Shown piece after piece: positions 12,186 to 48,198 of a stretch of DNA of 64,000 nt. This DNA comes from Podarcis liolepis. Lineage: Eukaryota. The DNA lies in the NCBI GenBank assembly GCA_965112155.1, contig OZ218098.1, one strand, 5' to 3'. Made by a program: the position numbers and the translations under genes. Below the pieces are notes generated by a model. It was given only the letters and a program-made list of their open reading frames with translations. It was not told the origin of the DNA and ran no database searches. Position 1 is the first letter of the stretch; every line of letters starts with the position of its first letter.

Positions 12186-12728
12186 ATGGGTCCAGTTATG
12201 CCTCCCAGTAAGAAGCCAGAAAGCTCGGGAATTAGTGTTTCCAGTGGATTGAGCCAGTGTTACCGGGATAGAGACTTAGCAAAGACGCTTCACGACGATG
12301 AGGACTTAGACTTTCCTTTACCTGCCCTCCGGTTGGAAAAAGGTCCCATGGAGGATGAAGAGCTCACCAACTTGAACTGGTTGCACGAGAGCAAGAACTT
12401 GCTGAAAAGTTTCGGGGACTCGGTCTTAAGAAGTGTTAGCCCAGTACAAGACCTTGATGACGACACCCCTCCATCACCTGCTCACGCCGACATGCCCTAC
12501 GATGCCAAGCAAAACCCCAACTGCAAACCACCCTACTCCTTTAGCTGCCTCATATTTATGGCCATTGAGGATTCTCCAACCAAACGGCTGCCTGTAAAGG
12601 ATATATACAACTGGATTTTGGAACACTTTCCTTATTTTGCAAATGCCCCCACTGGATGGAAAAACTCTGTGAGGCATAATCTGTCGCTGAATAAGTGTTT
12701 TAAGAAGGTGGACAAAGACAGAAGTCAG
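12186..12728 (+). CDS. FOXN3: Forkhead box protein N3 (CHES1), first coding exon (exon begins 12172; codons 1-181)
   Basis: [27 protein letters not shown]-terminus, LTNLNWL motif and forkhead [38 protein letters not shown]...[15 protein letters not shown] match recalled FOXN3. Acceptor AG at 12170-12171; donor CAG|GTGAGG at 12729 (phase 0). Confidence 0.97.
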
Positions 12729-15700
12729 GTGAGGCTGGAGTGATACTACTCCGTGTAACCCATTTGATCTGCTGATGGTGATTTCCTATTGTTTATATTC
12801 TGCCTTTTGTTCCTTCTCTTTTATCTGTGAGAAATAGCTTCCAGTGATTCTTAAGAGGATCTTTGTTCATAAATCTAGTCATATTCTCAGTGTATTTCCC
12901 GCCCCCGCCTAGTTGCTCTCACTCTTCCCATCTCACTCTTCAACTTCTGGGTCCTGCTCAGGACAAACATCCTAAAACTTATAGTTAACAGAATACAGGG
13001 CAGGCTTTTGGGATGCAAATCCGTCCAGGATGCTTTGCAAGCCAGCAGTAAAATGCATTTTTAAAAGTCATTGGGGTTATACCCCCAGGGCAGCTGGTGG
13101 GGAGGCAGAGAGTCCAGCTGGAACAGGAGCTGTTGGCCCTTGGAGAGAGTGAACCCCTGACCCTCCTGAAATGACTAAAACCATACAGAACATGCCTTCT
13201 TCAGATTTGGAGACAATGTGCTGCCTGGGGCTGATGGGAGTTGTCCAAAATATCTGGAGGGTGTCAGTTTGGGAAAAGACTGGTCTAGAACGAGTTGTCT
13301 CAATCAATCTGCATTGAGAGCTTGACTTCCATCTACTCAGAAGTAAACCTTATTGAGTTCAGTGGGACTTTATTCTAGGTGAATTGGTATAGGATTGCTG
13401 CCTAAGTGTAGCATTCAAGTTTGTGATTTTTTTTTTTGAGGATCTGACAGCTGAATGACTTAAAAAGCCTTTAAGATGGGAATGAATCCTTGACAGTTTG
13501 TAAACTTCCTAGCTCACTCACTGCCTGCATTTGCACATCATTTGCACGTGGTTCAGTGCAATGTTCACGAGCCAAAGTCAGTCCTGGGACTGCACAATGT
13601 TCTCTCTTTCTCATGTGGCCAGGAGGTTGATACCAGACAGTTTCACCCTCAGCTCCAGTAAACCGCAGTCTGCCCACTTGTCTGGACCTGGAATTGCAAC
13701 TCATGCTAACTGTGATCAGGCCAAACAAGACAGTTTCAGAAACCATGGTTTGCACAAGACTTTGTGTTCACCACATCTTCTCGCATCAGACAACACAGCA
13801 AACTGCTGTCAAGCAGAAAGCAAAAGCCTCCTCCCATCCATGTTTAAAATGCAACAAACAGTCCTGTGTCTATTCTTCCCATCCTCCCATTTTTAGTTCA
13901 TTGCATTCCAAGAGCCAGTATTTGCTCTTGAATAGTTCATTTTTAACAGCATTCAAATCTTTGTCTAGACAGCTGTAAGAAAGTGCTGTTTGTATAAATG
14001 CATGTTGTACATGGCTTTCAGAAAAAACCTCCCATCTTGTCTCTCCATGAATAACATGAAATATTGTGCTTGGGTGATGGTTTCCTGCTATACTATAATC
14101 CTAGAATTGTAGAATTGGAAGGGACCCCAAGGCTCATTTAGTTTAACCTCCTTCAGTGCAGGAATGTGGTTCCCATCCAATTTGAAACCATACTTGACCA
14201 GACACTGCTTAGCTATGCAAATGTGCCAGCAGTTTTATTGCTGCACCGCTAGGAGTACTAGATGCATGTAAACCGCAGAGGTTGGGTTGAACATTGTTCT
14301 TCACTTAGTTACTTCTATAAACATTTTTTTGAGGGGGGCGAATCTTTCCTAGACAGGTTGCATCTCTGATAATTGGAGTAAACCTTGAAAATATTTGCAG
14401 TTCCTTCCTTATTCCTAGAATCAAATGTAAAGGTTCCTGGGTGACCTTGCATCCACTGTTGTTCTTGTTATGAACTGTTGGTTTACTATGCGTGTTGCCT
14501 TCTGTTACATGGGGCTTTTAGTGGTGCTTAGGCTCAGGAGAGATGAAGCTACAAATACTCTTGTACGTACATCCACGCAGACCAGTGTGTCTGGGGGAAA
14601 ATTTCGATTGCAGAATAAAGGCTTGGCCTGTTCTTTTCTGTGCTTGAGTTGAGACATGAGGTGGGATGAGGTGAAGTTCTGGTATCTTCAAGGAGAAAGT
14701 ATTTCACATACTCAACTTCTTTGCTAGCGATATTGCAGGGAGCTTGAGCTGTGTGCCTGCTTGGGATCAAATATCCATTTGCTTTACTTAGGAATCTGCC
14801 TTGTGCTAGGTCAGGCGATTTGTCCATCAGCCTCAGGTAGCATGGCCAAGGATGAAGGCAGCACCTCTCCAGAATCTCAGGAAGAGGTCTTCTTTCATAA
14901 CTTGCTACCTGAGCCTTTTAACTGGAGATGCCAAGAATTGAATGTTGGACTTTCTGCATGAGCAACATGCACTCTGCCATAGGGCCCTGGTCCATCCCTA
15001 TAGTTTTAGCAGCTGAGCTATATCGTATGGCTAAAGACCTTTCTTTGGACCATTGTAATGACCTGGTAACGTCTTGTGGCTTCTTCTGAGACTCTTATAT
15101 TTAAGTACAAAATAATAATAATAATAATAAAAATCACTATCCCAAGAATTCCAGAATGCTGTCTCTAATCAGGTTGGATAATGCCTTGTATGCCTTCTTT
15201 GGGCAACTCCTGCAGCCAAGCTGGTGCCAAATGGGTCGCTCTGCTTTCCTTTGGACCACATCAGTGAGGCCAAGAAGGGGATCTTGTAATCTGGGCAACC
15301 CCGGACCTTTCACCCTGGGGAGATCACTTCAGTGCTACTGTCGCAGCAGTTTGATTTCACCCCCAGAATTCCTTTCCATTGTCTCTCGAGACAGACAGCT
15401 CCCAACAACAAAATCCTATGAGCACATTTCTGTTGCGTGGCTCTTTCCTTTGTATAATTTGAAAGGTGAAGGGGTTGAGGTATCTTGCTTGCAGAATGCT
15501 AGTTGCTTATGTAGCTGTGTTAGAAGCATGTCCTCATTTCAGTGGGAGGATGCATCTTGCAAACAGCTGCTGAGGCAAGATTTGCCTGTGTGCAGTAAGG
15601 AGGCTTCATTTAAATCAAAGCGGATGAAATTTAGGAACTTTATTTGTTACGTAAGCAAAGTAAGTGGCAGGTAAGAGTATGGTTATTCGGACTCTCCTGG

Positions 15701-15910
15701 TGACTAAATGGTCAAGAACACTCTCAAAAGAATAATAATAATAATAAACAAAAAATCTTTAATTATTTGGCCAGGCGTAAACTTTCCCATCCTGTTTCTT
15801 CAAAATGCTAGAAAGTAGAAATGGCATAGTGGGCATTGGGTATGCTTCCCCACCCTCTCCCAATTGCCAAAAGAGAGAAATGGTACCAACTATCTCTGCA
15901 GGCCTGAAGT

Positions 15911-16111
15911 GATTGTTGTACCTCGGGTTACATATGCTTCAGGTTACAGACTCCGCTAACCCAGAAATAGTACCTCTGGTTAAGAACTTTGGCAGTGGTG
16001 CGGCAGCAGTGGTAGGCTCCATTAGCTAAAGTGGTGCTTCAGGTTAAGAACAGTTTCAGGTTAAGAACAGACCTCCGGAACGAATTAAGTACGTAACCAG
16101 CGGTACCACTG
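15911..16111. mobile_element. Tigger-like MITE (same family as 53740 and 54030)
   Basis: Shares GGTTAAGAACAGTTTCAGGTTAAGAAC...GGTACCACTG|TA; left end degenerate. Confidence 0.7.
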
Positions 16112-16589
16112 TATTACTTCAGTTTCTGTTATTTGGTGTTGGTGAAGGTGCTACTGTTCAGCATTCCAGTCAACTGGCCTATGTATGTGTGCCAGGAAAA
16201 ATGAGTGGTGCAAGTACAAATCCTGGTTTTGTGGCAGGGGTCATTGATGTATTGTCCTCCAGATACTTTGGATTACAACTCTCATCATCCCTAGCTATTA
16301 GCCAAGATGGTGGAGAACGATGGAGAGTTGTAGCCTGCAAAATCTGGCAGGTACCACATCAGCTAGTCCTGATTTTTGCTTGAATGTTAAAGCATGCAAC
16401 AGAGATGTGTTCTTTTAACCTTCAGTTAAGAGGATAATCCCAGAAAACCTTGATCATAAATGGTATGTGTTGTTTAGCTATGGAAGGACAGAAGGAAGTT
16501 GAACTCTGCAATACAGTAGTCTGCAGTGGTCTCTTCTCTTCTACACCTCCCTTTGGCACCAAGCATCCACAGATCATTCTCTTGCTCAT

Positions 16590-17465
16590 CAGAACATGAG
16601 AACAGCCTGCTGGATCAGGCCAATGGCCCATCTAGTTCAGTATCCTGTTCTCAAAGCGGCCGACCAGATGCCTGTGGGAAACCTGCAATCAAGCTTCCAG
16701 TACAGAAGTACTCTCCCGTCCTGGGCTTCCCAGCATCTAGTATTCAGAAGCATCACTGCCTCCAGCTGTAGAGGCAGAGCATAGTCCTTGAGCAGCCATC
16801 AGTAGCCATCTCCTCCATGAATTTGTCTAATCCTCTTTTAAAGTATTCTAGATTGGTGGCCGGGACGCGGGTGGCGCTGTGGGTAAAACCTCAGTGCCTA
16901 GGACTTGCCGATCGTATGGTCGGCGGTTCGAATCCCCACGGCGGGGTGACCTCCCGTCGTTCGGTCCCAGCTCCTGCCCACCTAGCAGTTCGAAAGCACC
17001 CCTAAAAAGTGCAAGTAGATAAATAGGTACCGCTTTATAGCGGGAAGGTAACGGCGTTTCCGTGCGCTGCGCTGGTGCTGGCTCGCCAGAGCAGCTTCGT
17101 CACGCTGGCCACGTGACCCGGAAGTGTCTGCGGACAGCGCTGGCTCCCGGCCTCTTAAGTGAGATGAGCACGCAACCCCAGAGTCGGACATGACTGGCCC
17201 GTACGGGCAGGGGTACCTTTACCTTTACCTTTAGATTGGTGGCAATCACTGCTTCCCCTGGGAGCGAGTTCTATAATTTAACTGTGTGAAGAAGTCCTTT
17301 CTTTTATTTGTCCCAAATCTTCCAGCATTCATCTTCATTGGATGTCCACTAATTCTAGGGTTATGAGAGAGGGAGACAAACTTCTCTCTACCCGCTTTCT
17401 CCATGCCACCAACTTTTATCGTGTCACCTCTTACTTGCCTTTCCCCTAAACTAAAAGTCCCAGAT
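16590..17465 (-). mobile_element. CR1 LINE 3' fragment, split by a Sauria SINE
   Basis: AGAACAGCCTGCTGGATCAGGCC... tail and degenerate ORF2 C-terminus on the minus strand (FSLGERQVRGD...NAGRFGTNKRKDFFTQ). Confidence 0.75.
16862..17231 (+). mobile_element. Sauria SINE, full length, young
   Basis: GGGACGCGGGTGGCGCTGTGG head, (ACCTTT)3 tail, perfect TSD TAGATTGGTGGC (16849-16860 / 17232-17243), CpGs retained. Confidence 0.93.
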
Positions 17466-17770
17466 GTTACAACCATCTTTTATTTAACATTAACATCCCC
17501 CCAGCTCTTTGTAGGTGCTTGGTGAAAAGAGCTGATAAAGGTCTTTTAGGAGTTGCATCAGGATGCAGATAAGAGGGAGGGTGGGTTCTGATTGTTGGTT
17601 TTTTTAAAAAAAATTAAGGTGATTCAATCGTGCTTTACAACATCAAGAAAAAAGATTAGCTTTAAACCAGGATCTGCATAGATAGATCTGGGCATAGATA
17701 GCAGTGGTTGGCCGAAACCATTTTTGATTTTTGATTTCTAACTGGGCAGAGCCTTTAAAAGAAGGGTACG

Positions 17771-18053
17771 CTCTCTGTTGTCTTTGTCCATGGAGTTTTC
17801 TTGGCAGGGATACTAGAGTGGCTTGCCGGTTCCTGCTCCAGGTGAATCACGTTTGGTCAAAACTCTCCACTATGACTTGTCCATCTTGGGTGGCCCTGCA
17901 TGGCATAGCTCATAGCTTCTCTGAGTTATTCAAGCCCCTTCGCCACGGCAAGGCAGTGATCCATGAAGGGGATCATGAAGACAGGAGTGCCTGGCGTGCT
18001 CTGGTCCATGGGGTCATGAAGAGTTGGACACGACTAAACAACCAAACAACAAC
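17771..18053 (+). mobile_element. RTE/BovB LINE remnant: inverted 5' segment joined to a sense 3' end
   Basis: 17976-18053 is a BovB-type 3' end (CCTGGCGTGCT...GTCCATGGGGTCA...GGACACGACT, (AAC)n). 17771-17971 reverse-complements to a BovB-like 5' region (GAGCTATGCCATGCAGGGCCACCCAAGATGGAC...). Confidence 0.7.
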
Positions 18054-18628
18054 ACGCTGTTTCTTTAAACAAAAACATTTTCTCAAACAGTTGAAAGGTT
18101 ATCAGATGATTGTTAATTTAATTTTATGCCTAGCTGCAGAAGGATATTGGTTTGAAATTATACGCACATATTAAGAGGGCAGTGTTAGAAATTAGCCAGG
18201 TGCTAGGTGCATTTTGCTACTGGCATGGGTCCAGGTATGACTACATGGAGATTTCTGGGCACCTGGTGGGCGACCGCAGTTTAAAAGCCTCTCATTCCAT
18301 AGGTAATTCCATTTCCGTTTCCACTGTGTGTGTTTCTCCTCCCGTATTGGGACAAGTGAATTGTTGTCAGAGCAAATTACAGTCAAGCAATGTAGTTGAG
18401 ATCGTAGAATTGTAGCATTGGAAGGGACCCCAAGAGTCATGTGGTCCAACCCCCTGGCAAATAGACATCTGTTGTGCCAAATGTAACCCAGGTTTAATGT
18501 GCCATTCGCCCCCTAGCTTGTATATCTGTGTTTCTAACACTGGCAGAGGGCAGGATCCTACCTCCCAGGGCAGGGGTAGCCAGCCTGGTGTCCTCCAGAT
18601 ATTAATGGGATCGTAACTCACTTCATAT

Positions 18629-18958
18629 TGGGACACGGGTGGTGCTGTGGGTTAAACCACAGAGCCTAGGACCCTTGATCAGAAGGTCGACGGTTCGAAT
18701 TCCCGTTGCTCGGTCCCTGCTCCTGCCAACCTAGCAGTTCGAAAACACCTCAAAGGGCACATAAATAAATAGGTACTGCTCCGGTGGGAAGGTAAACGGC
18801 GTTTCCGTGCGCTGCTCTGGTTCATCAGAAGTGGCTTAGTCATGCTGGCCACATAACCCGGAAACTGTACACCGGTTCCCTCGGCCAATAAAGCGAGATG
18901 AGCGAGGCAACCCCAGAGTCGGCCACGACTGGACCTAATGGCCAGGGGTCCCTTTACC
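18629..18958 (+). mobile_element. Sauria SINE inserted in a hAT-type MITE
   Basis: Head and tail motifs present; TSD TAACT(C/T)ACTTCATAT at 18614-18628 and 18959-18973. Confidence 0.9.
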
Positions 18959-20163
18959 TAACTTACTTCATATGACCGTGGTCATGCTGGCTGGCCCTGA
19001 TGGGAGTTCAGCAACATCTGGATGACACTATATTGACTGCCCCTGGCTTATGGGGCAAAGAAGACATTTTGACTGAGCAGAGGGGGGAGGTTAGAAGATG
19101 CTTAAAGAAATAGGCTGACTCTGTGCCAGCACACTCACCTTTGTGTACATACCTCAGAGGGAGGGGGAAAGAGGCTCTGTTATGCTCCAGCTCAGCCTTT
19201 GCCAACCTGATGCCCTCAAGATGTTTTGGATTACCAAACAGTATGCTTGGGGCTGATGGGATTTGTAGACCCAACGCCTGGAATGTGCCAGGTTGCCAAA
19301 GACTGCTGTATTGGGATCTTCCACATGAGGACTGCAGGGGGACAGTTGCCATTAGTCATGTTTTTGTTTTTTTAAAAAACTTTTTCTGATTGCATTTCTG
19401 TCTTGGCACACTCAAAATAATAATGAGAAAGGCGTTTACTTGTAGACCCATGATCTAGAATTTTTCCAGGAAGCAACTGCTGGTAGGTACAGGTAATATG
19501 TGCTAGTAATGCATATTCATAATTTGAAAACAGAGCAAGTTGCAGAGCTCAGCTAGTTAGTCAGCATAAGATTACCCCCATAGGCTTAGTTGGGTACAGG
19601 ATCAAAGTGAGGCACTGGAAGATTTGCCAGTTCCTTATCACTATTATCAAGCCCATTAATTAATTTATTTTTAAAGTATGGCTCATTATATTTTGTACCA
19701 TATTTGTAATGCATAAGCTGAACAGACAGATATTCTAAGTTCATTCTTACAGTCCTAACATAATGTATTTGAGACTGGTTGACATATTCAGTTTAAAGAA
19801 GTATGTATTGGTTTTGCTTTAATATGTTTGGATTCATTTTAGATGGCATTTTTAACTAGGCTTTAAAAAATAATAATAATACTGTAGCTTTTTTTTTTTT
19901 AAGGAATTAAATCCTCTTTAGTCTGAGAGCAATACAGTGCTTGTGTTGCTCCTGACACCAGGATGGTTTTAGATTGCTGGTTAAATTTAACGTGGCTGTT
20001 TATGAAGACGCTTGACTGAATGTTTCTCTAGTCATTACTTGAATGCTGTTTCCTTTCCTGGTTGTGATTTTATGCTGTGTGGTTTGAAATATGGCTTCTA
20101 TTTTATTGTGAGGTTGTGTTTTGTAAGTTGCCTTGAATTCACTTGGAGAAAAGAAGTGGAATA

Positions 20164-20362
20164 GAGTGGTACCTCTGGTTGCGAACGGGATCCATTCTGG
20201 AGCAATTCACCGCTTCCGCGCATGCGCGTGATGTCATTTTGCACGTCTACGCATGCGTGAGTGGCGAAACCCGGAAGTAACCCTTTCCAGTACCTCTGGG
20301 TCGCCACAGGACACAACCTGAAAAAACATAACCCTCAGCGTTCACAACATGAGGTATGACTG
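20164..20362. mobile_element. Tigger-like MITE
   Basis: TA|GAGTGGTACCTC...GAGGTATGACTG|TA; nearly colinear with 5020-5246. Confidence 0.75.
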
Positions 20363-20989
20363 TATAAGGTGTCCCCCCCCCCTTACCCAATAAATGGGTT
20401 GCAGTGATGTCTTTGGGTATATGTACTAATTGTGTGAATTTTATTAATTCTCTGATGAGGACTTTTATTTGTTACTGCTAGTGTGTAGATGGTGGCTTGA
20501 TGGGACAGGAACGGAAAGATACAATTATATGCATGACGAAGATTTATGTTTAAAAGTCTGCATATCCTATTAAACTGGCCCAGTAAAAGATGACATGCTG
20601 ACCTTATTTGCATTTCCTATATCTTAAGTGGCCCAGAGTTGCTATAAATAGCAGGCAGAGTTGTTTGTTGGGTGAGATTGGTTTTCACTGTATGCTCTTG
20701 ATACCCCTTACTTAATACTGAAGTGTACATTGCAGAGAAACAGAAGATGCTACACAGCACTGCGTCTAAATAGAAGTTGCATGTATATTGCATCTTACCC
20801 AGTTTCAAGTGTTGTTGTTTTTTTGCACTAGTGTTTTTCTTTTTATTAAACACAGGCACACACAACAGTAGAGTTTTTCCATTGTTGCTATATATCTGCT
20901 TTTAGCACAGAAAAATATTGATTAAATGGAAAGTGGACATTTTACTTCAGGTATCTTAACATCAAAGCTGCTGTCGTTTTTGTTTTGGG

Positions 20990-21007
20990 GTGTGTGTGTG
21001 TGTGTGT

Positions 21008-21049
<42 letters not shown>

Positions 21050-21061
21050 AGAGAGAGAGAG
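20990..21061. repeat. Compound (GT)n(CA)n(GA)n microsatellite
   Basis: Seen directly. Confidence 0.9.
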
Positions 21062-21900
21062 TATATATATGTCTTTCTCTATGCTTGTGATTATCTCATT
21101 TCCTAACTTATTGCAAGTGTTCCTTAAGACACACTTATTAATCAGCTCTAAAATGTCTGATTCTCCCCACTCGACTAGTTAAGAGCCTGCTCTCTTACCC
21201 AACATGTCCAGAAGACAAAAAAAAGTAGCCACAATTGTCTTAGATATAATGCTCATGATCTTTCCAGTCTTCTGAACAATCTTGTGTCTGCTTCCCTATC
21301 CCCTTTGCTTCAACTTCTCTATAGTTTCAGCAGTTCCAAAAATAATCTAATTCAGTTGAAACTTTGCAATTTTTGTGAGCGCTCCACTGTGTGGTTGCGA
21401 TTCTTCAGGTCTTTATTACACACGTGGACTCGTCTTCTCTTCCACAATAGAAGCAAAGTGAGTACACAGCTAACTTTAAATGGAAAGCAAATGCTTGTTT
21501 AGGATTGATCATTGTTTAGAAGTTGTCTGTTTACCCGGCAGTTCCTCTATATGTATTTGCACTTGGGGCTGTAAATCATTGAGGGAAGCTTGAAGTTAAA
21601 AGGGGGCGTGCACAGTGAAATAAGGTTTCAAATAGGTTTTCTCCACAAAAACTTCAGGAGTGAAGAAATTCTGCATTATAGGGCAAATATAAAGAATGTC
21701 ATCCTCTAGTCTCAAAGAAAGCTCAGTTATTCCACCAAATGGAATGCAACCATACTCAACTTATTCGAAAAATAGAAGGTTAATACTCTATTCAGTAGTT
21801 AACGTGAAGAAAAAGAATTTCACATTCCGTTTGTATATTCAACTGATGCAGCCAAGATCCTTCAGGTTATCTAAAAGCGCTCATCGGGAAACAGATGGGT

Positions 21901-22296
21901 TTAAGTGTCAGTCAGTTGCAGTCTGCTAATTTGGTTGGAGGCCTTCGCAAATGTTTGGGGACGTTTGCAAATGGCAGCCAGGCAAAGAGGAATGATACAG
22001 TAGCCCACCATTTGGGGATCAGCTCTTGTACAGGAATAAAGGAACAGGAACATTTGCAAATAAGGGATCAAGAAGATAATAGTCCACAGCCAAAAGGGTA
22101 CGGACAGCAGCCGTGTTTTTAAGGAGTGCATCCAGGTGGTTTCTTCTCTCAGTTTTTCAGGAGGTTGCTGGATGTGCTCCAGTGCCAGTCTGTTGTAAGT
22201 CTCATTGATTTCAAAGACATAGTAAAATGCTGCTGCACTTGCTATTAAGTATAATCCCACACCAATCCATCCCATCCTCTGACAGAAGTTCATCAT
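21901..22296 (-). CDS. LYSET: Lysosomal enzyme trafficking factor LYSET/TMEM251-like ORF, 131 aa, nested antisense in a FOXN3 intron (functional gene vs duplicated/pseudogene copy unresolved)
   Basis: MMNFCQRMGWIGVGLYLIASAAAFYYVFEINETYNRLALEHIQQ...PFWLWTIIFLIPYLQMFLFLYSCTRADP...GYCIIP...KASNQISRLQLTDT* aligns end to end with the recalled short TMEM251 isoform; the upstream RAWR is also retained; no frameshift or internal stop. Confidence 0.9.
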   Translation of the reverse strand: MMNFCQRMGWIGVGLYLIASAAAFYYVFEINETYNRLALEHIQQPPEKLREETTWMHSLKTRLLSVPFWLWTIIFLIPYLQMFLFLYSCTRADPQMVGYCIIPLCLAAICKRPQTFAKASNQISRLQLTDT

Positions 22297-22319
22297 TCTC
22301 CATGCTCTGAACCTTCCTC

Positions 22320-22500
22320 CGCAGGAAAACACGGGAATGAACAGGCAGGAGGAGGGAGCGCGGGTGGCCCAACCCTTGTCACCCCACCGCCGCTCCTGCC
22401 GAGCCGCTCTTTGAGTCCATCCCTTCCACCGCCCACCTGGGGCCTGCCCCTTTCGAGCTCTGCTTCTGGTGCCGTGTGACATGGCTGCCGTCACGTGAGG
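22320..22500 (-). promoter_or_regulatory. GC-rich 5' region of the LYSET copy with a CLEAR-like E-box
   Basis: GTCACGTGAG at 22490-22499 (9/10 to the CLEAR consensus GTCACGTGAC), local GC/CpG enrichment, candidate donor CAG|GTGGGC at 22436 (-). Confidence 0.5.
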
Positions 22501-22911
22501 AGGGTCCAAAACCAAGACTTTCTGTGCTTCACTTCAGACTGTTTCCCCTTTACAGGCAGTGTCACCTTCACTATTGTCCACAAGCTGATGAGTTTGATGT
22601 CTGTAATCTTCAATACTTGCTAAATAAATAAAAGGGGAACGTAAAAGAAAAGAGTTTAGGAGATGACATATTTCTGAAATCTTTTGAGAGGCTGCAGTGG
22701 ATGCAAAATAGCCTTTTACAGTTCTTGTCAGCTGTGAGAATTATGGGCACTGGTTAATTGTGTTTGCTTCTCTCAGCCCCTTCCCGGCCTAAAATAAATG
22801 GTTTATTCGTGAAGTTCAGTTTTTTGCTTTTTGCCTTTCACTGGACATCAGTGCTCTATGAAGGGATTTCAGGTGCTGTCTTCTTCCTAACAAATAATGC
22901 AACCTCTGCAG

Positions 22912-23163
22912 CAGGGGTCAGCAAACTTTTTCAGCAGGGGGCTAGTCCATTGTCCCTCAGACCTTGTGGGGGGCTGGACTATATTTTGGAGAGAAAAAAA
23001 TGAACAAATTCCTATGCCCTACGAATAACCCAGAGATGCATTTTAAATAAAAGGACACATTCTACTCATATAAAAACACGCTGATTCCCAGACCATCCGG
23101 GGGCCGGATTTAGAAGGCGGTTGGGCTAGATCCGGCCCCCAGGCCTTAGTTTGCCTACCCATA
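22912..23163. mobile_element. hAT-type MITE
   Basis: CAGGGGTCAGCAAAC...GTTTGCCTACCCATA termini; degenerate 8-bp TSD CTCTGCAG/CACTACAG. Confidence 0.7.
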
Positions 23164-23171
23164 CACTACAG

Positions 23172-23309
23172 CAGCGGTTCTCAACCTGTGGGTCCCCAGA
23201 TGTTGTTGGACTACAACTCCTATCTTCCCTGAGCTCTGGCCTTGCTAGCTAGGGGTGATGGAAGTTGCAGTTCAACAACATCTGGGGACCCACAGGTTGA
23301 GAAAGGCTG
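23172..23309. mobile_element. hAT-type palindromic MITE
   Basis: CAGCGGTTCTCAACCTGTGGGTCCCCAGATG...CATCTGGGGACCCACAGGTTGAGAAAGGCTG; 8-bp flanks CACTACAG/CGCTGCAG. Confidence 0.8.
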
Positions 23310-26233
23310 CGCTGCAGGATCTGGAAGGCAGGAAGGGCTGCAGGCATCTCTGCTCAACCCCTCCCCCCAAAAAAAATCTTTTATACACTTAAAGCCACCT
23401 TAAAACACTAGCCTGGAAGTCATGGGTGAGCAAGAACTGTATGCAGGTGAATGAGCAGTCAGGCAGAGGAAGGAGCCCTCCTCTTAGCTCAGCCCCATTG
23501 CTGGAGGGTGGCGTTAACATTTTCCAAGCAAAGTGCTGTATTTTGCGTGCTGTATTACATCAGGTGGCACACCTCAATGATATAATTACAGTGTGGATGT
23601 AGACATGTGTTGGATGTGTTTCCACAGGCACTCGTGAGAGAGATAAGGCGTGCAAAGCACCCAGCGGCATTCTGTCAGTTGTTCACGCATCTAGTTGTTC
23701 GAAGGCTGCATGCTCTTTTGTTGTGTGCAACAAATATGGAGCAAAAGAGTATATTATTAATTATTTTAAAATGTTTCGCATTGTTTTCAGCTGTTTTTCA
23801 CTGATAAATTTCACAATTACTGTAAACCATGGCTGTTAAAGTAGTATAATGTGGTATTCCTAGTTAACAGCTTATAACCACATAAGTGAAACATGGTGAT
23901 TCAAGAAATCCACTTGTACACTTTGAAGACACCAGTAGACCAAAAGAAAATAGTGTCTCCCTCTCCACCCTTATATTTTGCAGTTGAGATGACTTGTTCA
24001 TCTTTCTGCAGTATTCAGTTTGAATTTATGCTGCCTCTATTTTGTAAGTGTAGCTACATTGGTATAATTCATTGCCACAGATTACCATTTAATGACTTGC
24101 CTGCTGAATGAGATTTGCAGCTAGACAATCTCTTCTAATATATCCAAGAACAGATGAGAAATGCTGTCAGGCTTTGCCTACTGACAATTCAGTATCCCAT
24201 GTACTAACCGTGAACTAATTTATAGCACCATCTATGCACGAGAAGGAGGTATCAGCAAGCTTGAGGGAAACCCAAAGGTTGTAGGTGTACAAAACAACTT
24301 TAAGAGGGAACCACAACTGTCCAATAAGGACAAAGCATGCCTTGTGGCCTTTGGCTCACTGCCGTGGGGGAACTGGGGGAATGAGGCAGAAATGGAACGG
24401 AGAATCCCACGAGAGGTCATGACTCACTGGCTGGAACCCTGAACACTGCAAACTGTTGATGTGTTTTAGGTCCCACTTGTTATCTGCATGTTCAGTATTA
24501 TTTCTGCATTCACACCCATCTTCTATCACTTTCTTTTAACTCCCATTTTTTCTCCTCCCCTCCATTTTTTTTTTAAAAGTTGAAAGTAAACTTGGATGAA
24601 ACATGGGTGCTTTATTTTAAAAAAAGTGTGTGGTTTTTGAATTGCTTGTTGTACAGCTTCAGATCTCTCTTGGCTTGATGCTGGGGGAAGAGCGCTGAAA
24701 TGCTAACAAACACCGACCTGATGGGTGGCAGAGAAGACAATTGCTGGAAATATGGGAGGCAGCTTTTTGTTTGTGCTCGGTCAAGAACATTAAGGTCGGT
24801 CGCCGAACTCCCAGATCCTGCTGGGTTGGTGGGAAAGAGGGCAGGACTGTAACCTCAGAAGATGAACTTGTTCCAAATGCAAGTTTTGTGCAGTAGTTAA
24901 TTACCAATTCACAGTTGGGGCGTTTGTCTCTCTACTACTTGAAACTGATGACTCTGTTCTGGAATTGTGACCTGTGTACCAAAGAGAGTCCTCTCTGTAT
25001 GAGCCCATCAGAATGCAAGATTCTGTTCAGAGTTGCATCCGTAAGGGAGGTTAGATTGATAGAACAGGGCCTTCTCAGTGGCGGCACTGCTTTCTGAAAC
25101 TGTGGAAAACAGAGCAAAACAATATGGCCCCATTTGAGGCGGCTGAGATATTTTTGCCCTGTGTCAGTGCACTCTGTGGTTTGGGTGTTTCTCCTAAAAG
25201 GCAACAGCCCAAATATGTGCAGTATCTTCAGGCCACACAGCACATAAAAGCATATGAAAATTTCAAAAATAGCATCCAAATATTGCAATGAAAGAAAATA
25301 AATCATGGAGGTAACTTCAGATAAAATAATAAAGCCAAGAGAACAATTAATGAAAAACCTTGGGTAACAGCCATGTTTTTGTCCAGACATCTGAAAGAGC
25401 AAAGTCTTCTGATGTGTATTGTCTTACATTTATTTATAAATCCCATTGTTTTCAGAGGAGCTTTCAAGGAACTAAATGTGTGGTATTAAGAACAGCACTG
25501 CATATAAACAGTCTTTCGACTGGTTGTGAAACAGGGTGATAGTTAGCAAACATTGGGCACTCGGTATGGCTTCTTAAATACCAGAGCCTTTCTTTAGTGC
25601 TGTGGTTCATCTCTTCCCCCACTCCTGGTTTGATCAGTACACTTTCTTCTGTGGAGTAATTGTGTATGTGTTTTGATCTGTTTTTCATGTAATCCATTTA
25701 TACGTTGCGTGCTTATTTCCAACCTTCTAGACTTCACTATGATGGTTGCAGAGAGTCTTCTATACCAATATTCTTCTCCAACAAGATTAATGCTAAACTT
25801 TTATTTAGATTTATTAAAAAATCAGACATGGAAAGTGATAAAGTGATTTAACAACAACAAAATGAACCTATTTTTAATAAAGTAAATGTTGTGTGAGTGT
25901 GTGCAAAATGAAGGCTGGGGGAGAGGGGAGCATTAGTACCATTACAAACCTTCTTGTTAACACATGTCAGCTAGTTATATACAAGCACTAAATCTTAATG
26001 GTACCACCATGAGCATAACATGGGAGGTTTTTTTCTCCTTCCCCCCTTTTATATCTCTCCTTATTGCTAGACCTACATATTCAATTGCTCAGATTTCATC
26101 CTGTTTCCTAGTACATAGATCTGAATGCCCTAGTATGTGTCCCATTTAGTACAATCCCTTTAGCCCATGACTCTTCCTGGCTTCCCTTACCATCTGGTCC
26201 TTGGCTATGGAGAGGAATTTTTCTTGTATATGC

Positions 26234-26290
26234 GTCTCCGTAGCAACGAGTTTGCAGTTGATATGGAAAGTAAGCAGTTGCCCTAGCAAC
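26234..26290. promoter_or_regulatory. RFX X-box cluster (candidate intronic enhancer)
   Basis: GTCTCCGTAGCAAC (26234-26247), GTTGCCCTAGCAAC (26277-26290) and a weaker GTTGATATGGAAAG between them. Confidence 0.55.
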
Positions 26291-27504
26291 AGAGTTACTG
26301 ATGTGGCAGATCCTCGGCTTTCAGGGTAAAGGCCTGTGAAGCTTCAAATGCATTATGCAGGTCTGCTGTAATTATGGAAGTGCCCACTAGTGCTGTTGCC
26401 GATTAAGGGGACCGTGAACATCTTTTGTTGCAGCCTTTGTTTTTTTGGGAGGCATGGAGCTGGCTAAAGTATTTGCCCTTTGGGGGCCTTTGGGTAGCAA
26501 GGTGTTGGCTGCAGACCATGTGGCTTTGTGTGTGTTTATAGGAAACGGGAACGAAGTTCACCGTGAGGACATTTGTTCCCATCCTTTGCCTTACTGATGG
26601 GAGTTCCCTTCTGAGCCTATGAGGCAGAGGCTGCCAGCCATAAATTTTCTGCTGCCTTTTCTTGTCTCTCTCCTCCTCCTCCTCCTCCTCCTCCTTCCTC
26701 CCAACTGTCCTTCCTATGATTTCTCCTCTTGGCTTCTGTGAACCTCCTTGCAGAAGTTGACATTCTCCTTGCCCTAGTTTACTTCTCTCCTCTCCTCTTC
26801 CATGGTATCTCATCAAGTATTTAAGCTTCTGGGAAGTGCCTCCTGCTAAATGATGGAGAATTTCGGTTCAGTAAGGGGAGGAGAACATTCCAAAGCCTGC
26901 TGAGCATTTGCTATTCGACTTCCCACCCCCAGGGAAGTCTAGCTGTATTCCATTATACAGGCAAATGCTGGGATCACCCTTTCTTTACAAGAATTGGTGC
27001 TTGCAGAGAAGCTTCATCTGAATGCAGTTTTGAAAACCCAAACATTAGCATCCCTTTGTGTGTACCTGCATGCGAATGGTGACACGCACCACTATCTCAA
27101 GATTTGTGGGGTGGGTGGGTGTGGTTGCTTTAAGGCTAAAACTCTAGATTCCTTCTCCTTTACTGTTACTGTCTTGAATCTGTAGTGGAGGCAATTTTCA
27201 GTAAGTGTGTTTAGGAATCTGCATTCACTAGGATCAAAGAGTTTGGCAGTCCATATAGAGTCCTAACGATCTGAGCTTACATTCCTAAGAAGGAAAAAGA
27301 AATCTGGTCCTAGTGATTGCTGAGCTGTGAAGTTTTGTGATATGGGCAGGTGTTTTGCTTTTTGCAAAAGAAGAGAGAGTTTCTGGTAATATTCATTCAA
27401 ATCTTCTGTACCAGTTGCTTCTGGTGCCTTTTCTTGTCTCTCTCCTCCTCCTCCTCCTCCTTCCTCCCAACTGTCCTTCCTGGTACAGGGGCAGGTGAAT
27501 TGTA

Positions 27505-27842
27505 CAGTGGTGCCCCGCAAGACGAATGCCTCGCAAGACGGAAAACTCGCTAGACGAAAGGGTTTTGCAGTTTTTGAGCTGCTTCACAAGACGAATTTCC
27601 CTATGGGCTTGCTTCGCAAGACGAAAACGTCTTGCGTTTTTTGCAAGTTTGTTTCCTTTTTCTTAACACCGTTAATACAGTTGCGACTTGACTTCGATGA
27701 GTAACTCATAGAACGTGGTGTGGTAGCCTTTTTTGAGGTTTTTGGCAATTTTTGAAGCTTTTCCAAAACTTTTCCGACACCGTGCTTCGCAAGACGAAAA
27801 AACTCGCGGAACGAATTAATTTCGTCTTGCGAGGCACCACTG
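27505..27842. mobile_element. Tigger-like MITE
   Basis: TA|CAGTGGTGCCCCGCAAGACG...CGTCTTGCGAGGCACCACTG|TA; same family as 33455-33815 in the opposite orientation. Confidence 0.85.
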
Positions 27843-28853
27843 TACCACTGTAAGCAAGGTACTCCCCCCCCCAAAAAAAACCCTATTTGTACAAGTCCCT
27901 TTCACATGTACAGGAGGTAAGCAGTTTTGTGCCCGCTCACAGCCACTTTCCCTGCTACCCCTATGGATGCATCTAGGTGATGGCATGAAATCCTGTGTTC
28001 GCAGGCTTTATCCACAGCATGGACTCTAGCTACTCACGTGGATGTGCACAGTCAGTTTTTTGCATCTTCATATTAATATGCATATAAGGTGAAAAAGTGG
28101 AACAATCCTGCTCTCTACTTCCACCCTTCCCCTAAAATTTGTTCAGCTGAACATGTGAAAAGTGTTGCAGTAAAACCTGGATCCTCCATTTAGTTTCCTA
28201 GTTCATATGTCATCAAAAGGAAGTGAGCGGCTTGTTGTTTTCCTGGTGTAAATTCCAGCAGTCCTCTTGAGCTCTCCTACATCACCATCTTAGTTGGAAA
28301 AAAAAGGAAGAGATATGCTTCTCCTTAGTCCTAGCCTTTTGACCCATCAAGGGATATTAGTGCATTGAGGGGAAGGGGCATAGCGTACCTTGGTGAGCAG
28401 TCACTAGAGCTCTGCTGCACTACTTTGGGAAGGATTCTTTCTAAATTACGTAGATCCTCTGCTCTGAGGAATTGAAAACCAAGACTCATTGCTGTAACCT
28501 TGTTTGGTTCTTAGAGAGGTCTGTTCCTTGCAGCAGACCTGGTGGAAAAAGCTATGTTTAAATCCCTGACATAATTTTATTGTTTATTGTTACCCAAGTG
28601 GCACCATTTTGCACGGTGTAAAGGTGCTTATTCCTGTGTTCTTCATCCCTTAGTTAATAATATTCTACCACTCAACAGAAGGCAGTTTGGCCATCTCTAC
28701 CTAACGGTTATGATAATTATTTTTGCGGTGTTCTGTTGCTTACTGCTTTGATAGCTGTGCATAATAATAATAATAATTTTATTTTATATATATATGCAAA
28801 CTTCAGTTGGGTTATCTGTCAAGAAGGACTATTATTATTGTTATTGCATATAC

Positions 28854-28886
<33 letters not shown>

Positions 28887-29410
28887 CACCAGATGTAGGT
28901 ATGTTTGGTTTGAAATAAGTACCAAAGAGTTATGGAGGGTTTACACCCAAGCTAGTGTACAATGGACTAAGAGCTAAATCAGGTTTCTCAGATGTGTCTC
29001 TGTGTGTGTTGGCTTGCTTGATAACGGGAGGGGGTGGGAAATTTGAATACATTTTCATCGAAAAAAGAGATTAGGTAGTCATGTAAGAACAAGCTGTTTG
29101 TTCCGTCACCACAACATGGGAAGACAGTTGCATAACCTTGTTTTGGGCAATCAAGTAGGAGAGTGTTGCGCTGAAATCTTGTTTGCAAGAGCAGGCTGGG
29201 ATGGTGTGTTTTTTAAATAAAACGATTAAAATTATAACAAGTTCCTTCCCTTGTGTTACTTTGCTCTGTTGCGTTGCATTATACCGCTGCTATCTGCAAC
29301 CCACCTAAGTATGCATTTTATATCGTATCTTTCAGTCAAATTATTCTCACGGTAGCCTACATGTTGTAATAAAACATACCTCATTGAAACTCATCAGATA
29401 TACACGTGTG

Positions 29411-30712
29411 CGCACATCCCTTCCAATCAGGATTTGAGCCCCATCATGGGACTGAAACAGCCTTGGTCCCGCTGGTCAATGATCTCCAGCAGGCTAGGTA
29501 CAAGGGTGAAAGCTGTTTCCTAGTTCTGCTGAATCTCTCAGCAGTTTTTGATACCATTGACCATTGTATCCTTCTGGACCGACTAGAAGGGTTGGGAGCT
29601 GGGAGCACTGTCATACAGTGGTTCCGCTCCTTCCTCCTGGGCCGTGTCCAGAAAGTGGTGTTGGGGGATGAGTGTTCAGACCCCTGGACTCTCACTTGTG
29701 GAGTGCCTCAGGGCTCCGTCCTCTCCCCCAAGCCTTTCAACATCTATATGAATCCGCTGGGAGAGATCATCAGGGGTTTGGGCTGAGTGTTCACGAGTAT
29801 GTGGATGATACCCATCTTTACCTCTCTTTCAAATTGGAACCAGTGAAGGTCCTGTCTGAATGTCTGGAGGCGGTTAAGGATGGATGGTGGCTAACGGATT
29901 GAGGTTGAATCCCAACAAGACAGAAGTGCTGTTTTTTTTGGGGGGGGGCTCCCTGGTCCTGAACAGGGTAACTGTGCCCCTGAAGGACCGAGGTACAGCC
30001 TGGGAGTCTTTTTGGACTCCTAACCGTCCATGGAGGTGCAGGTCAATTCTGTGACCAGAGCAGCTGTCTTCCAGCTCCATCTGGTACACAGGCTGAGACC
30101 TTCCCTGCCTGTAGATTTTCTCACCAAAGTGGTGCATGCTCTGGTTCTCGCCCGCTTAGATTAATGCAGTGCGCTCTATGTGGGGCTACCTTTGAAGGTG
30201 ACTCAGAAACTACAACTAATCTAGAATGCAGCAGCAAGACTGGTGACTAGGAGTGGCTGCCAGGACCATATAACACCAGTCCTAATGGATCTTCACTGGC
30301 TCTCTGTATGTTTCTGAGCACAATTTAAAGTATAGGTGCTGACCTTTAAAGTCCTAAACAGCCTTGGCCCAATATACCTGAAGGAGTGTCTCCACCCACT
30401 TCGTTCAGCCCGGACGCTGAGGTCCAGCTCTGAGGGCCTTCTAGCGGTTCACTCACTGCAAGAAGCGAAGATACAGGGAACCAGCAGAGGGCCTTCTCGG
30501 TAGTGCTGCCCTTCTCTGTGAACATCCTCCCTTCAGATGTCAAGGAGATAAAGAACTGCATGACTTTTAGAAGATATCTGAAGGCAGCTCTGTATCGGGT
30601 AGTTTTTAATGTTTGGTGTTTTTCTATGTTTTATATACGCTGTAAGCCGCCCAGAGTGGCTGGAAAACCCAGCCAGATGGGCAGGGTATAAATAATAAAA
30701 TTATTATTATCA
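29411..30712 (+). mobile_element. L2-clade LINE, 5'-truncated, decayed reverse transcriptase
   Basis: QSGF...HGTETAL, LVLLNLSAVFDTIDH, GVPQGSVLSP and YVDDT (YADD-like) motifs with frameshifts; 3' end GCCGCCCAGAGTGGCTGG...GGGTATAAATAATAAAA(TTA)n. Confidence 0.9.
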
Positions 30713-33454
30713 TCGCATAGGGGGTCCTCAGTAATTAGCTAATTGGGAACCACTATCTTAAGCCCTAGGCATCCACATCCAGTTTGGCTCAAGTTCCAAT
30801 GATCTTCCTCCTGCTCTCCTCAGCCCCTTCTGCCTGGGGGAGAGGGGGACTCAGTAGGTTTTTGTAGGAAGCATAGCAGAGAAGATCATTAATTGTTGTA
30901 CAAGGTGACCTGGCAATGAAGGTCTTTTTTCTGGTTGAGTAGCGTCAGAATGTCTTTGAGAAGGGATTGGGTGAGGGAGGTATATATTTCTTTGAGGGGC
31001 ACAATATCCTAGGAATTCACTCAGGAAAAGTCATTCTCTGGGTGATATGCTTCTAGAAACTGTGTGGAGATTGTAGTCTTAATCTGCTAAAGCATCATTT
31101 AAGGTACAGAAATGAATTGATATTTACCGGACTATAGACTTATCCCTCCTTACAGTCTATAACTTGCCAAAACTGAGGTAGGAGAATGCATTTTTTAACT
31201 GAGATGTCAGTTAAAAAAGAGATATTCTGTGAAGTGAAACATTATCTGGAAATAATTCCGTTTCTCAAACCTTAAATTTAGGATGATGCTTGCAGTTTGT
31301 ATTAAAATGAGAGATGGGGACGCAGCAGTGTTGTTGATATGACTAATCTTGGCCTTCCACACTGGCAGATATTTTTACACATCGATACTAATTTTTGCTG
31401 GTTTCACATGCTTTCTTTGCTTTTTGTGGACTAAAAATAGACTTTAAAAGAACAACAACCCGAAAAGCGTTGAGGTGTGACTTCTTAAAATATATTGCCC
31501 AAATTAAAAAAACAAAAACCTGAATGAGATGCTTTTTCCTTCTGTGGCAATTAAGACCCGACTTTCTTGAAACAGCCCCTGTCCAAGAGTACAAAATATG
31601 CACCCCATTTTTTTTCTTTTTAAAAAGAGGATTGGTTTTTAAAAAAATTCCTGAAAGAACATCTAATTTAGCCTTCAGTTCAAGCAGTATATCTGCTTGG
31701 TATATGTACAGGCTGTAAAATAAAAAAATGGATATTTCTCTTTTAAGTGGCACCTTTATTGTGGTATAGCATGGTAGATGATATTCTTATTTCAGTATCC
31801 TTAGCATTACTCTTCTTCCCATTTTTTTGTCTTAAAAGCTTTTTGATGTGTCTCTGGATAATTTTGCCTTTCAAAGCAAAATACAAGTAGTAAATCTAAT
31901 TGTGTGCTTTAAAAAAATAAATAAATGTGATTCCTTGTTTACTTTTTACCTGTTAGGTTTCTTTAAAAAGTTACTTATGTAAATAAAATTGTCAGCTAGA
32001 AAAACAGAACCAGGGTGTTGATAATTTTGATTTGGCATCCTTGGAGAATGAAAAACAAGTATTTTGAAAATATTTCTGCACGGTTTTCTGGTTTTCTACA
32101 TGGTTTCTGGGCAGCCCATTGATTCAGTATTCCTGGAATTTCGTTGCTGTTGCTGGAGGGTTTTTTCTCTCTCCCAAGAAGGATGGTACTAAATGGACGC
32201 CAGCAATTTTTAAAGTTATGGCCAGTTATTTTCTGCAGCTTTTAAAGGAATTGCAATATATTCTTTTCCTTAACGAAACACACTGCTCTTTTAATTTTTC
32301 CATTATGACTATGACATTGCATGAGCTTCTTCCTCTTCTAAGGTACTTTCCCTAACTTTGCTTCATCCAGATCCTTTATCTCACTTCAATTTGTCTATGG
32401 TTCTCGTCAGCAGCTAAGTTTAGTGAGGGAGAAATTGGACCCGGGTCAGGGTAGAGGAATATACACCTAGGTTCATAGTTTAAGGGCATCAGTTTGTGTA
32501 TATATGTGTACATATGCCAAGGCTAGTTTGTGCTTGTAGACAGCTGTCCTGGTGTTTCCTTAAACACCACAGAAGTGGAGCTGTTCTTCTGCTCCTCACA
32601 TGGTTCTCTGTTTTCATCCGCCACCATTCAAAAAAATGTAAGGAAGAAAGTTTGCTTGTGGTAAATTTCCAGAGCCGTTTCACATAAACAGTAGAGCGGT
32701 CTCCACAGTCCTCATTTTGCCCCTTGGTGGGTAAGCTGTTATTCACATGCAGAAGGTACTAGGTTCAATTCCTGACGTCTCCAGGTCATGCTCGTTCAGG
32801 GGAGGGGGGAAGGCTCCTGTCTGAGACTTTGGAGAACCATTGACAGTCAGTGTTGACAGTGCTGAGTTGAATGATCTGGTGGTCTAATCTGGCATGTGTC
32901 AAGTTTCCTGTTTAGAAGTTTATGGGTGGCATTTGCCCAAAGTACCCGGTCAGAAGAAGTGCTGCACAAGAACTTCTGCTTGTGCAATGGGGTCCCCCCC
33001 CGTCATGTCTCCCCTGAAATTGGCTGAGGGGGAAGCAGTCAGTGCTCTTTTCTGCGTGTCTTTCGCAAAGGACTTGTCTGTTCCCATTTTAAAAAGGAAT
33101 GTTTAGAAGGAATACGGTCCACTCTACACCCTTTCCAAGACCAGAACAAATGTAATTATGATCTTGTGGTTGGTAAATCCATCTGTGTTACAGAAACGAG
33201 TCCTCCCAGTTTTCATTGGGACCACAGCTCATTGTCTCTCTCTCCCCAGCTGAAATCCCGATGAAAATTGTGCCCCAGGTGGACTGCTTAGCCTTAGGGA
33301 AAATGCTCCCTTGGGGTTGACGGGAACCTCCCCGCCCCACCAGGTTAATTGCAGTGCGGCAGTGGGAGTAGGTAGGTTTGCGAGTGGGGAAAACAAAACT
33401 TCTACTCCCCTTGTGCTGGGATTTTGATGTAAAGCTGTTTCTTTTTGCCTAGTA

Positions 33455-33815
33455 CAGTGGTGCCTCGCAAGACGAAATTAATCCGTTCCGCGAGCCTCTT
33501 CGTCTAGCAGTTTTTTCGTCTTGCAAAGCAACCCTATTAGCGGCTTAGCGGATTAGCGCTATTAGCGGTTTAGCGGCTATTAAAGGCTTAGCGGCTATTA
33601 AAGGCTTAGCGGATTAGCGGCTAAAAGGCTATTAGCGGCTTAGCGGTTTAGAAAAGGGGGGGACAAAAAAAAAATCGGAACACTTGCAAGACGTTTTCGT
33701 CTTGCAAAGCAAGCCCATAGGGGAAATCGTCTTGCGAAGCAGCTCAAAAACGGAAAACCCTTTCGTCTAGCGGGTTTTCCGTCTTGCAAGGCATTTGTCT
33801 TGCGGGGCACCACTG
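33455..33815. mobile_element. Tigger-like MITE with an internal (TTAGCGG)-type minisatellite
   Basis: TA|CAGTGGTGCCTCGCAAGACG...TCTTGCGGGGCACCACTG|TA; tandem TTAGCGG variants at ~33535-33650. Confidence 0.85.
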
Positions 33816-33869
33816 TATTAAATTTTAAAACACATGTATACACCCCAGGTCTGATTGCTACCCAAGCAA

Positions 33870-34222
33870 GGTGGCGCTGTGGGTTAAACCACAGAGCCTA
33901 GGACTTTCCGATCAGAAGGTCGGCAATTCAAATCCCCGCGACGGGGTGAGCTCCAGTTGCTTGGTCCCAGCTCCTGCCCACCTATCAGTTCAAAAGCACG
34001 TCAAAGGGCAAGTAGATAAATAGGTACCGCTCTGGTGGGAAGGTAAACAGTGTTTCCGTGCACTGCTCTGGTTCACCAAAAGTGGCTTAGTCATGCTGGC
34101 CACATGACCCAGAAGCTATACGCCGGCTCCCTTGGCCAATAAAGCGAGATGAGCGCCACAACCCCAGAGTCGGCCACGACTGGGCCTAATGATCAGTGGT
34201 CCCTTTACCTTTACCCTTACCT
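33870..34222 (+). mobile_element. Sauria SINE
   Basis: GTGGCGCTGTGGGTTAAACC head; CCTTTACCTTTACC tail. Confidence 0.88.
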
Positions 34223-35200: not shown

Positions 35201-35304
35201 AAGAGGGCCATAGTTGTGTTGGTAAACTGTGTGCTTGTAGTAGTGCTGCCCTTTTCATAGGAATTTAGGAAACTGTCTTATGCCAGGGCACACATCTAGC
35301 TTTG

Positions 35305-35449: not shown

Positions 35450-35491
35450 GTTATCCTGTTCTATGAGCCCAACATTGCCTGACTGGCAGAC

Positions 35492-40188: not shown

Positions 40189-40210
40189 TACTTTGGAAGC
40201 AAGTACTGTA

Positions 40211-43605: not shown

Positions 43606-43607
<2 letters not shown>

Positions 43608-43689
<82 letters not shown>

Positions 43690-48192: not shown

Positions 48193-48198
48193 ATATAT

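Follow-up and report, generated by a model that had tools for sequence, protein, structure and literature searches.

We sought to establish how an intact reading frame for LYSET, the Golgi factor that stabilises GlcNAc-1-phosphotransferase, came to lie antisense inside a large intron of FOXN3, and whether it still behaves as a gene. The stretch of Podarcis liolepis DNA that was analysed (the window) is 64,000 nucleotides long, and its features are collected in Table 1. As the original prediction had held, the LYSET frame is full-length and uninterrupted, with 131 codons and a stop on the minus strand at 21901-22296, and its product matched the Pfam family TMEM251 (PF15190) with an E-value of 2.9e-67 over profile positions 1-130 of 131. 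At 225 bits against a curated cut-off of 27, this full-length match lies far beyond chance. The frame stays open from an in-frame upstream ATG at 22482, which gives a product of 193 aa, and the same extension is annotated in P. muralis and P. raffonei, also at 193 aa (P0127). The predicted nesting held equally well. The FOXN3 exon at 12186-12728, for which the best solved-structure match was FOXN3 itself (PDB 6nce, E 3e-45), ends in the splice donor CAG/GTGAGG at 12728/12729, the forkhead is continued in the next exon from 50470, and the LYSET frame lies antisense within the intron that these two exons flank (12729-50469).

Table 1. Features of the window that bear on the LYSET copy and its FOXN3 host.
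Feature	Position	Strand	Basis
LYSET/TMEM251 core ORF, 131 aa + stop	21901..22296	-	translation, Pfam
Core ORF changes vs parent (n = 9): R5C, K95Q, T96M, I104L, V108A, V109I, N111K, H113P, I129T			
In-frame 62-codon N-terminal extension with inherited ATG (long isoform, 193 aa)	22297..22482	-	parent with same extension
FOXN3 coding exon preceding the host intron, from ATG to splice donor	12186..12728	+	Pfam Forkhead
FOXN3 host intron, 37,741 nt	12729..50469	+	donor and acceptor read
Whole LYSET processed retrocopy, 930 nt	21580..22509	-	BLASTN vs parent locus
Exon-1-derived segment, CpG-island 5' end	22313..22509	-	match to parental exon 1
Exon 1/exon 2 junction, 7,730-nt intron missing	22312..22313	-	parent vs window splice-site reading
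E-box TCACGTGAC, candidate inherited promoter element	22490..22498	-	kept in copy and parent
Parent-derived 3'UTR, ending 145 nt before the parent's inferred cleavage site	21580..21900	-	alignment with parent
Unique intronic flank in copy-sense transcripts (recruited 3' end), AATAAA at 21417-21412	21280..21579	-	X23, X16
Distal AATAAA, then A-rich stretch; candidate signal	20842..20847	-	sequence reading

Elsewhere in the window, a CpG island at 6001-7000 (GC up to 0.64, o/e 0.75) lies ~5 kb above the FOXN3 coding exon and is likely the FOXN3 promoter or a 5' exon, and weaker CpG-rich stretches were seen at 18501-19000, 52501-53000 and 63501-64000. Two ORF-like fragments, at 60960-61307 (+) and 17872-18174 (+), may be of retroelement type, with an apparent resemblance to a CR1 LINE 3' end and to a piece of a Bov-B/Sauria-SINE.

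A protein search of the same genome returned two matches (16 candidates scored), namely the window ORF and a locus at C1:22240626-22241018 (-), which lies 1.9 Mb away on the same contig and is 93% identical to the window copy (122/131 residues). This parent locus (C1:22240623-22248961) has two exons separated by a GT-AG intron of 7,730 nt, with a CpG island covering exon 1, and it encodes a protein identical to the annotated Podarcis muralis LYSET. A zf-UBR exon lies 9 kb downstream on the same strand (C1:22231397; 1 of 5 matches), and ITPK1-family exons lie ~141 kb upstream on the opposite strand (C1:22389749). We take this arrangement to fit the human ITPK1-LYSET-UBR7 order, the name UBR7 being given to the neighbour from its family and position. 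The lacertid parent's exon 1 (C1:22248765-22248934) encodes an arginine-rich 62-residue N-terminal extension whose sequence is unlike that of the human long isoform; the extension of Rhineura LYSET (P0144) is related to the lacertid one. Because basic tails bind GOLPH3, the long form may differ in Golgi retention.

BLASTN aligned the window to the parent in two blocks, 22311-22509 with C1:22248763-22248961 (86%) and 21580-22315 with C1:22240296-22241037 (94%). Where the parent reads GGAAG/GTAAG at its donor and TTTAAG/GTTCAG at its acceptor, the window reads GGAAG/GTTCAG, with 22312-21580 making up the exon-2-derived part. The intron has been lost exactly at its splice sites, and the window copy is therefore a processed retrocopy. 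All the marks of this class were found, that is, exact intron loss, an intron-containing parent elsewhere and no parental flank. Homology to the parent is confined to 21580-22509, no parental intron or flank accompanies the copy, both of its flanks are single-copy in this genome, and protein and DNA searches of the genome found no intronless donor elsewhere. The original prediction had offered a lineage-specific duplicate or a relocated gene; the duplicate stands, as an RNA-mediated one with an exact exon-exon join, and the relocation falls, the intron-containing parent being still in place between the zf-UBR and ITPK1-family exons. If LYSET had been duplicated or moved into FOXN3 at the DNA level, a parent on the same contig and a copy with neither poly(A) tail nor target-site duplication (TSD) would be expected, but the intron would not have been cut out exactly at GT-AG and parental intron or flank should lie alongside the copy. 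The exon-exon junction refutes this explanation. An assembly artefact is countered by a 628-nt contig from organism B (DNA run X3) that spans the 3' junction of the copy, and by the separate parent and 'LYSET-like' proteins of three other species. We give DNA-level duplication, relocation or artefact next to no credence.

At its 5' end, which begins 27 nt above the upstream ATG, the copy carries the parent's CpG-island first exon. The GC content of this segment is 0.66 and its CpG o/e 0.62 vs 0.88 in the parent, and 9 of the 26 differences between copy and parent in the coding extension are CpG-type transitions. The E-box TCACGTGAC stands 8 nt above the upstream ATG in the parent (~C1:22248941-22248951) and in the copy alike, and is presumably CLEAR/TFEB-like by consensus; the literature passages searched gave no support for TFEB control of LYSET. 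Upstream of the copy, at window 23181-23310, there is a short inverted-repeat (MITE-like) element that also occurs in several places near the parent.

The 3' end of the retrocopy, at 21580, bears neither a poly(A) tail nor a TSD. Comparing the 5' junction region with 20500-21600 gave as the longest exact repeat an 8-mer ~270 nt from the 3' junction, a chance match that agrees with the earlier remark that no TSD was convincing. The L1-type (TPRT) signature of 3' poly(A) plus TSD is thus missing from the window copy, and because it is missing we can only infer the mobilising element. A DNA search located a third LYSET sequence in the genome, on C21, as two pieces at 84-92% (C21:40451650-40452290 approximately; L015:1290-1950, -). 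It is a dead processed pseudogene, 5'-truncated, with a stop codon and a 125-nt deletion. An A-rich remnant closes it ~30 nt past the position of the parental AATAAA, and a degenerate TSD-like repeat, ATGGAGCT, lies near both ends. DNA of organism B holds a matching C21-type copy that lacks the large deletion and has a 7-nt deletion. Since the end of the C21 copy marks the parent's likely cleavage site, the window copy is 145 nt short, and these 145 nt of parental UTR were found nowhere else in the window, where the remaining matches to that stretch are simple repeats. With the C21 copy, retroposition of LYSET mRNA is shown to have happened at least twice, with TPRT-like marks. The 5' junction of the C21 copy also bears additional, palindrome-like sequence of ~40 nt, and the copy lies ~200 nt away from a GC-rich stretch that resembles a promoter. 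Jerboa, snow vole and marmoset have degenerate 'LYSET-like' proteins (P0033, P0054, P0056) that resemble independent mammalian retrocopies, and the short two-exon LYSET may therefore be retroposed repeatedly.

We propose that spliced LYSET mRNA was reverse-transcribed into the FOXN3 intron in an ancestor of Podarcis and Zootoca, likely by LINE target-primed reverse transcription. The LINE was probably of L1 type, since the C21 retrocopy has an A-rich tail and a degenerate TSD. A later deletion would have taken away the final 145 nt together with the tail and one of the two TSD copies, after which the transcript would have gained a new 3' end from intron DNA, and the antisense orientation may have let the copy persist without truncating FOXN3 transcripts. 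The promoter could be the carried exon-1 segment or a nearby intronic element, and the copy is now likely drifting under strongly relaxed selection.

The relatives of the copy bear on its age. Among 155 proteins, the best match was the 193-aa 'LYSET-like' protein of P. muralis, whose cluster also takes in P. raffonei; the Zootoca vivipara model has 218 aa. In RefSeq these are annotated as 'lysosomal enzyme trafficking factor-like' (P. muralis XP_077781038.1, P. raffonei XP_053233217.1, Zootoca vivipara XP_034963369.1), with identities to the window copy over the alignment of 96%, 92% and 81%, respectively, and they differ from the separately annotated parents in the same three species. The window copy has K95Q, T96M, I129T and the KGQAP extension changes in common with all three, and goes beyond them in R5C, I104L, V108A and H113P. 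The models are automated annotations, and their orthology rests on the shared derived residues. Queried by itself, the extension retrieved the P. muralis/P. raffonei cluster and nothing else (1 of 8 candidates). The shared residues argue for an old lacertid insertion, and the organism B contig over the 3' junction means that one further species, at the least, has the insertion at this site. A tree of Zootoca, Podarcis and Lacerta, in which Zootoca is most distant, is reported with its deepest node calibrated at 37.55 Mya (bioRxiv 2025.06.04.657811), and the Lacertini tree is described as unresolved (PMC2719621). An insertion age above ~30 My is likely, as a loose estimate.

The frame may have been broken in other lineages. 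The Zootoca model contains a 24-residue insertion, while its extension is open and holds one inserted codon in frame. Whereas the RefSeq model of P. muralis is intact, 14 residues are missing from an alternative one (P0040, UniRef A0A670HPH6), which also continues past the stop; this alternative model may stem from an allele that is broken, from faulty assembly or from the modelling itself. At the level of protein models, the Zootoca insertion and the A0A670HPH6 gap and read-through suggest breaks. No copy protein of Lacerta agilis or P. lilfordi was found among the 15 of 29 main-cluster members listed. Broken copies yield no protein; the copies visible as proteins are selected for openness.

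Reads mapped on 20701-22200 came from four of 24 listed sequencing runs, any RNA among them being from organisms other than the best-matching one, with testis perhaps absent from the tissues sampled. In X23, stranded bulk RNA of organism C (~12% of the run, 128 reads mapped), all depth lay in the LYSET sense, the direction of the parent-derived reads, and there was zero depth opposite in 30/30 bins. The unique flank at 21301-21550 was covered at a depth of 1.4-3.6, with no reads below 21251. Since the reads run in one direction and stop at 21251, they are neither FOXN3 pre-mRNA nor DNA. The window's letter was carried by 4/24 X23 reads at 21625, 2/22 at 21911, 2/21 at 21921, 2/8 at 21964, 2/28 at 22057 and 1/36 at 22138, by 0 of 18-31 reads at eight UTR sites (21681-21829) and by 0/4 at 21972; 7/128 reads were >=99% alike. 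Among copy-sense reads in the single-cell run X21, the window's letter was seen in 0/17, 1/41 and 1/47, and up to 3 copy-sense reads lay at 21051-21300. Run X16, from another study and by our guess RNA, gave one 310-nt contig at 21280-21589, and for P. raffonei and Zootoca each copy has 2-3 transcript accessions in RefSeq. The copy appears to be transcribed weakly in a related species, at roughly one LYSET read in 10-30, and the 3' end of its transcript reaches at least ~21280, beyond the proximal AATAAA. Both AATAAA motifs that had been put forward as candidate poly(A) signals, at 21417-21412 and 20847-20842 (-), are present.

Transcription opposite the FOXN3 strand and into unique flank could point to a role at the RNA level. 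Convergent antisense transcription would then damp the elongation or splicing of FOXN3, or regulators shared with the parental LYSET mRNA would be drawn off by the transcript. Regulatory retrocopy RNAs are on record (PMC5470649). The overlap is purely intronic, however, at least 8.5 kb from any FOXN3 exon found, and the level is low. The UTR has also changed faster on the copy branch (9/302) than on the parent branch (4/302), and therefore no RNA-level constraint is seen. We regard such a role as very improbable.

The explanation that weighs most against simple decay is a functional, weakly constrained retrogene, whose product would have the LYSET membrane core conserved but the cytosolic tail diverged and, in a restricted tissue such as testis, would add to or tune the retention of GNPTAB and the tagging with mannose-6-phosphate. 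The coding regions of parent and copy are separated by 15 differences, of which 9 are non-synonymous (301 sites) and 6 synonymous (92 sites). In P. muralis/P. raffonei, P. lilfordi and L. agilis the parent core is the same as in this genome, with 0 differences, and all amino-acid change therefore falls on the copy's branch. Over 302 ungapped UTR columns, with the C21 copy as outgroup, 9 changes fell on the copy branch, 4 on the parent and 31 on C21, with 3 unresolved. The amino-acid rate on the copy branch, 9/301 (0.030), equals that of the UTR, 9/302 (0.030; Fisher p = 1.0), a yardstick that may itself be constrained. Podarcis copies differ from one another by 4-6 amino acids per 301 sites (1.3-2.0%), much like the flanks (organism C 6/310, organism B 10/579; 1.7-1.9%), a comparison limited in that organism C is not known to be among the named species. 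This equality of protein, UTR and flank rates argues against the retrogene. A raw pairwise pN/pS of 0.46 was dropped as a sign of selection because it includes parent-branch synonymous change, the C21 copy placing the codon 126 change on that branch. Gene conversion by the parent, considered as a source of the core's low divergence, likewise gained no support, there being 3 synonymous differences in ~64 sites, not below the UTR rate.

The kinds of change and their positions point the same way. The four copies yield 21 distinct changes, which we scored against a set of 139 homologues from which nine copy or '-like' sequences had been excluded. Their mean BLOSUM62 score was -0.43, vs -0.42 to -0.44 for random point mutations (P 0.5), and 9/21 fell in alanine-scan-critical segments, which make up 39% of residues. 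R5C, Y26S, P78L and C89Y occur at positions invariant in 138-139 sequences, so that other lineages do change invariant core residues. In the opposite direction, sites conserved at >=95% took 7 changes vs ~11 expected (P 0.05-0.07), and the four-copy changes were marginally shifted toward variable sites (P 0.05-0.15). In favour of the retrogene, the transmembrane core is almost unchanged in this genome, with 1/212 sites changed in codons 1-92 (p = 0.052 vs UTR) and 8/9 changes within codons 93-131 (p = 0.0004, with the boundary picked post hoc). Over the four copies this tail clustering weakens to 10/21 (P 0.07-0.11).

Frame survival also supports the retrogene. The 193-codon frame is open in this genome, P. 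muralis and P. raffonei, as is the extension in Zootoca. Under neutrality the core would stay intact with a probability of 0.08-0.21 in this lineage, 0.03-0.10 over three Podarcis lineages and 0.32-0.50 for the two other Podarcis tips, the part unselected by the finding; for the extension, likewise unselected, to stay open in all four copies it is 0.01-0.12. These values, overall 0.01-0.2 on the retrogene's side, rest on small counts and assume 0.1-0.2 indels per substitution. Frame retention is somewhat above chance, and the likely age of >30 My, the stranded transcription and the recruited 3' end fit a gene in use. Weighing on the other side are the pre-selection of protein-visible copies for openness, the listed cluster members without an L. 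agilis or P. lilfordi copy, and the small, patchy share of LYSET reads that the copy supplies, with none at the eight UTR sites in X23. We consider the functional retrogene a possibility to be entertained, though a doubtful one.

A fair reading of the sequence comparisons is that constraint on the copy is strongly relaxed, with dN/dS somewhere at ~0.5 to 1. Purifying selection of the kind expected of a functional retrogene was not seen (9/301 vs 9/302, a neutral-like spectrum and marginal signs of constraint), and the stop or frameshift of a classical disabled pseudogene is likewise absent from this genome's copy. Downgrading the locus to a young pseudogene, as had been foreseen for a near-neutral, unexpressed copy, is apt in that dN is close to neutral and inapt in that the copy is old and, in a related species, apparently transcribed at a low level. 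On balance we judge, with modest confidence, that this is an old LYSET retrocopy whose ORF is intact and whose transcription is weak, and that it is slowly decaying while constraint on it is strongly relaxed.

What such a copy would make can be predicted from human alanine scans, which are reported to place a GOLPH3 motif at F4xxR7 with R5A tolerated, ER exit at 93-96, retromer binding at 97/99 and 108-110, and a critical segment at 127-131 (PMC13106649). The N-terminus of the copy, MMNFCQR, retains F4 and R7, which together with the tolerance of R5A in human cells counts for the retrogene. Those scans swapped blocks of residues for alanine, and the effects of the copy's single changes are predictions. 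If translated, the copy would likely be a weak, redundant LYSET, a two-transmembrane Golgi/ER protein; a weak and redundant GNPTAB partner is expected because its changes sit in 93-96 (ER exit), 108-110 (retromer) and 127-131. Both human isoforms are reported to rescue knockouts (PMC11649813), and the long extension is therefore unneeded. The boldest version, a lacertid retrogene >30 My old with its own E-box/CpG promoter, a recruited 3' end, an unimpaired membrane core and GOLPH3 motif and a rewired ER-exit/retromer tail, acting as a natural trafficking variant that tunes mannose-6-phosphate tagging tissue-specifically, we think unlikely.

There is nothing unusual about the locus as a retrocopy, and automated annotation already labels its relatives 'LYSET-like'. 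It is nonetheless a clear, dated cross-genus retrocopy in squamates, where few are described, and its presence or absence can serve as a marker within Lacertini, whose tree is poorly resolved. It can mislead LYSET orthology and read mapping in wall lizards. Should it be translated, its changes at 95-96, 108-113 and 129 amount to a natural test of the ER-exit and retromer motifs described for human LYSET, a disease gene of recent discovery. A second LYSET that functions in an amniote would, if true, be new within the literature searched, although the sequence evidence leans against strong function. Among the papers listed by our literature searches, none dealt with a LYSET retrocopy; the supplementary retrocopy tables of two VGP papers may list the copy.

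The copy resembles vertebrate processed retrocopies in its intron loss with an exon-exon join, its new location and its CpG decay, and differs from typical ones in having neither poly(A) nor TSD and in being common to several genera. By one account, 22.5% of lepidosaur retrocopies keep their ORF and, in a sparse sample, 90.6% are species-specific (bioRxiv 10.64898/2026.06.26.734816); another describes ORF-intact retrocopies as common in lepidosaurs (PMC13320880). The window copy carries the parent's CpG-island first exon together with its E-box, and ~3% of expressed mammalian retrocopies are reported to inherit the parental promoter (PMC4772013). Compared with LYSET/TMEM251/GCAF proteins (PF15190), the copy keeps F4xxR7, V97, Y99, both helices and the full two-transmembrane core, and has both long and short in-frame starts, as described for the human isoforms (PMC13106649; PMC11649813). 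It departs from them in being intronless, nested in FOXN3 and shortened in its 3'UTR, and in carrying K95Q/T96M, V108A/V109I and I129T within the scan-important segments 93-96, 108-110 and 127-131.
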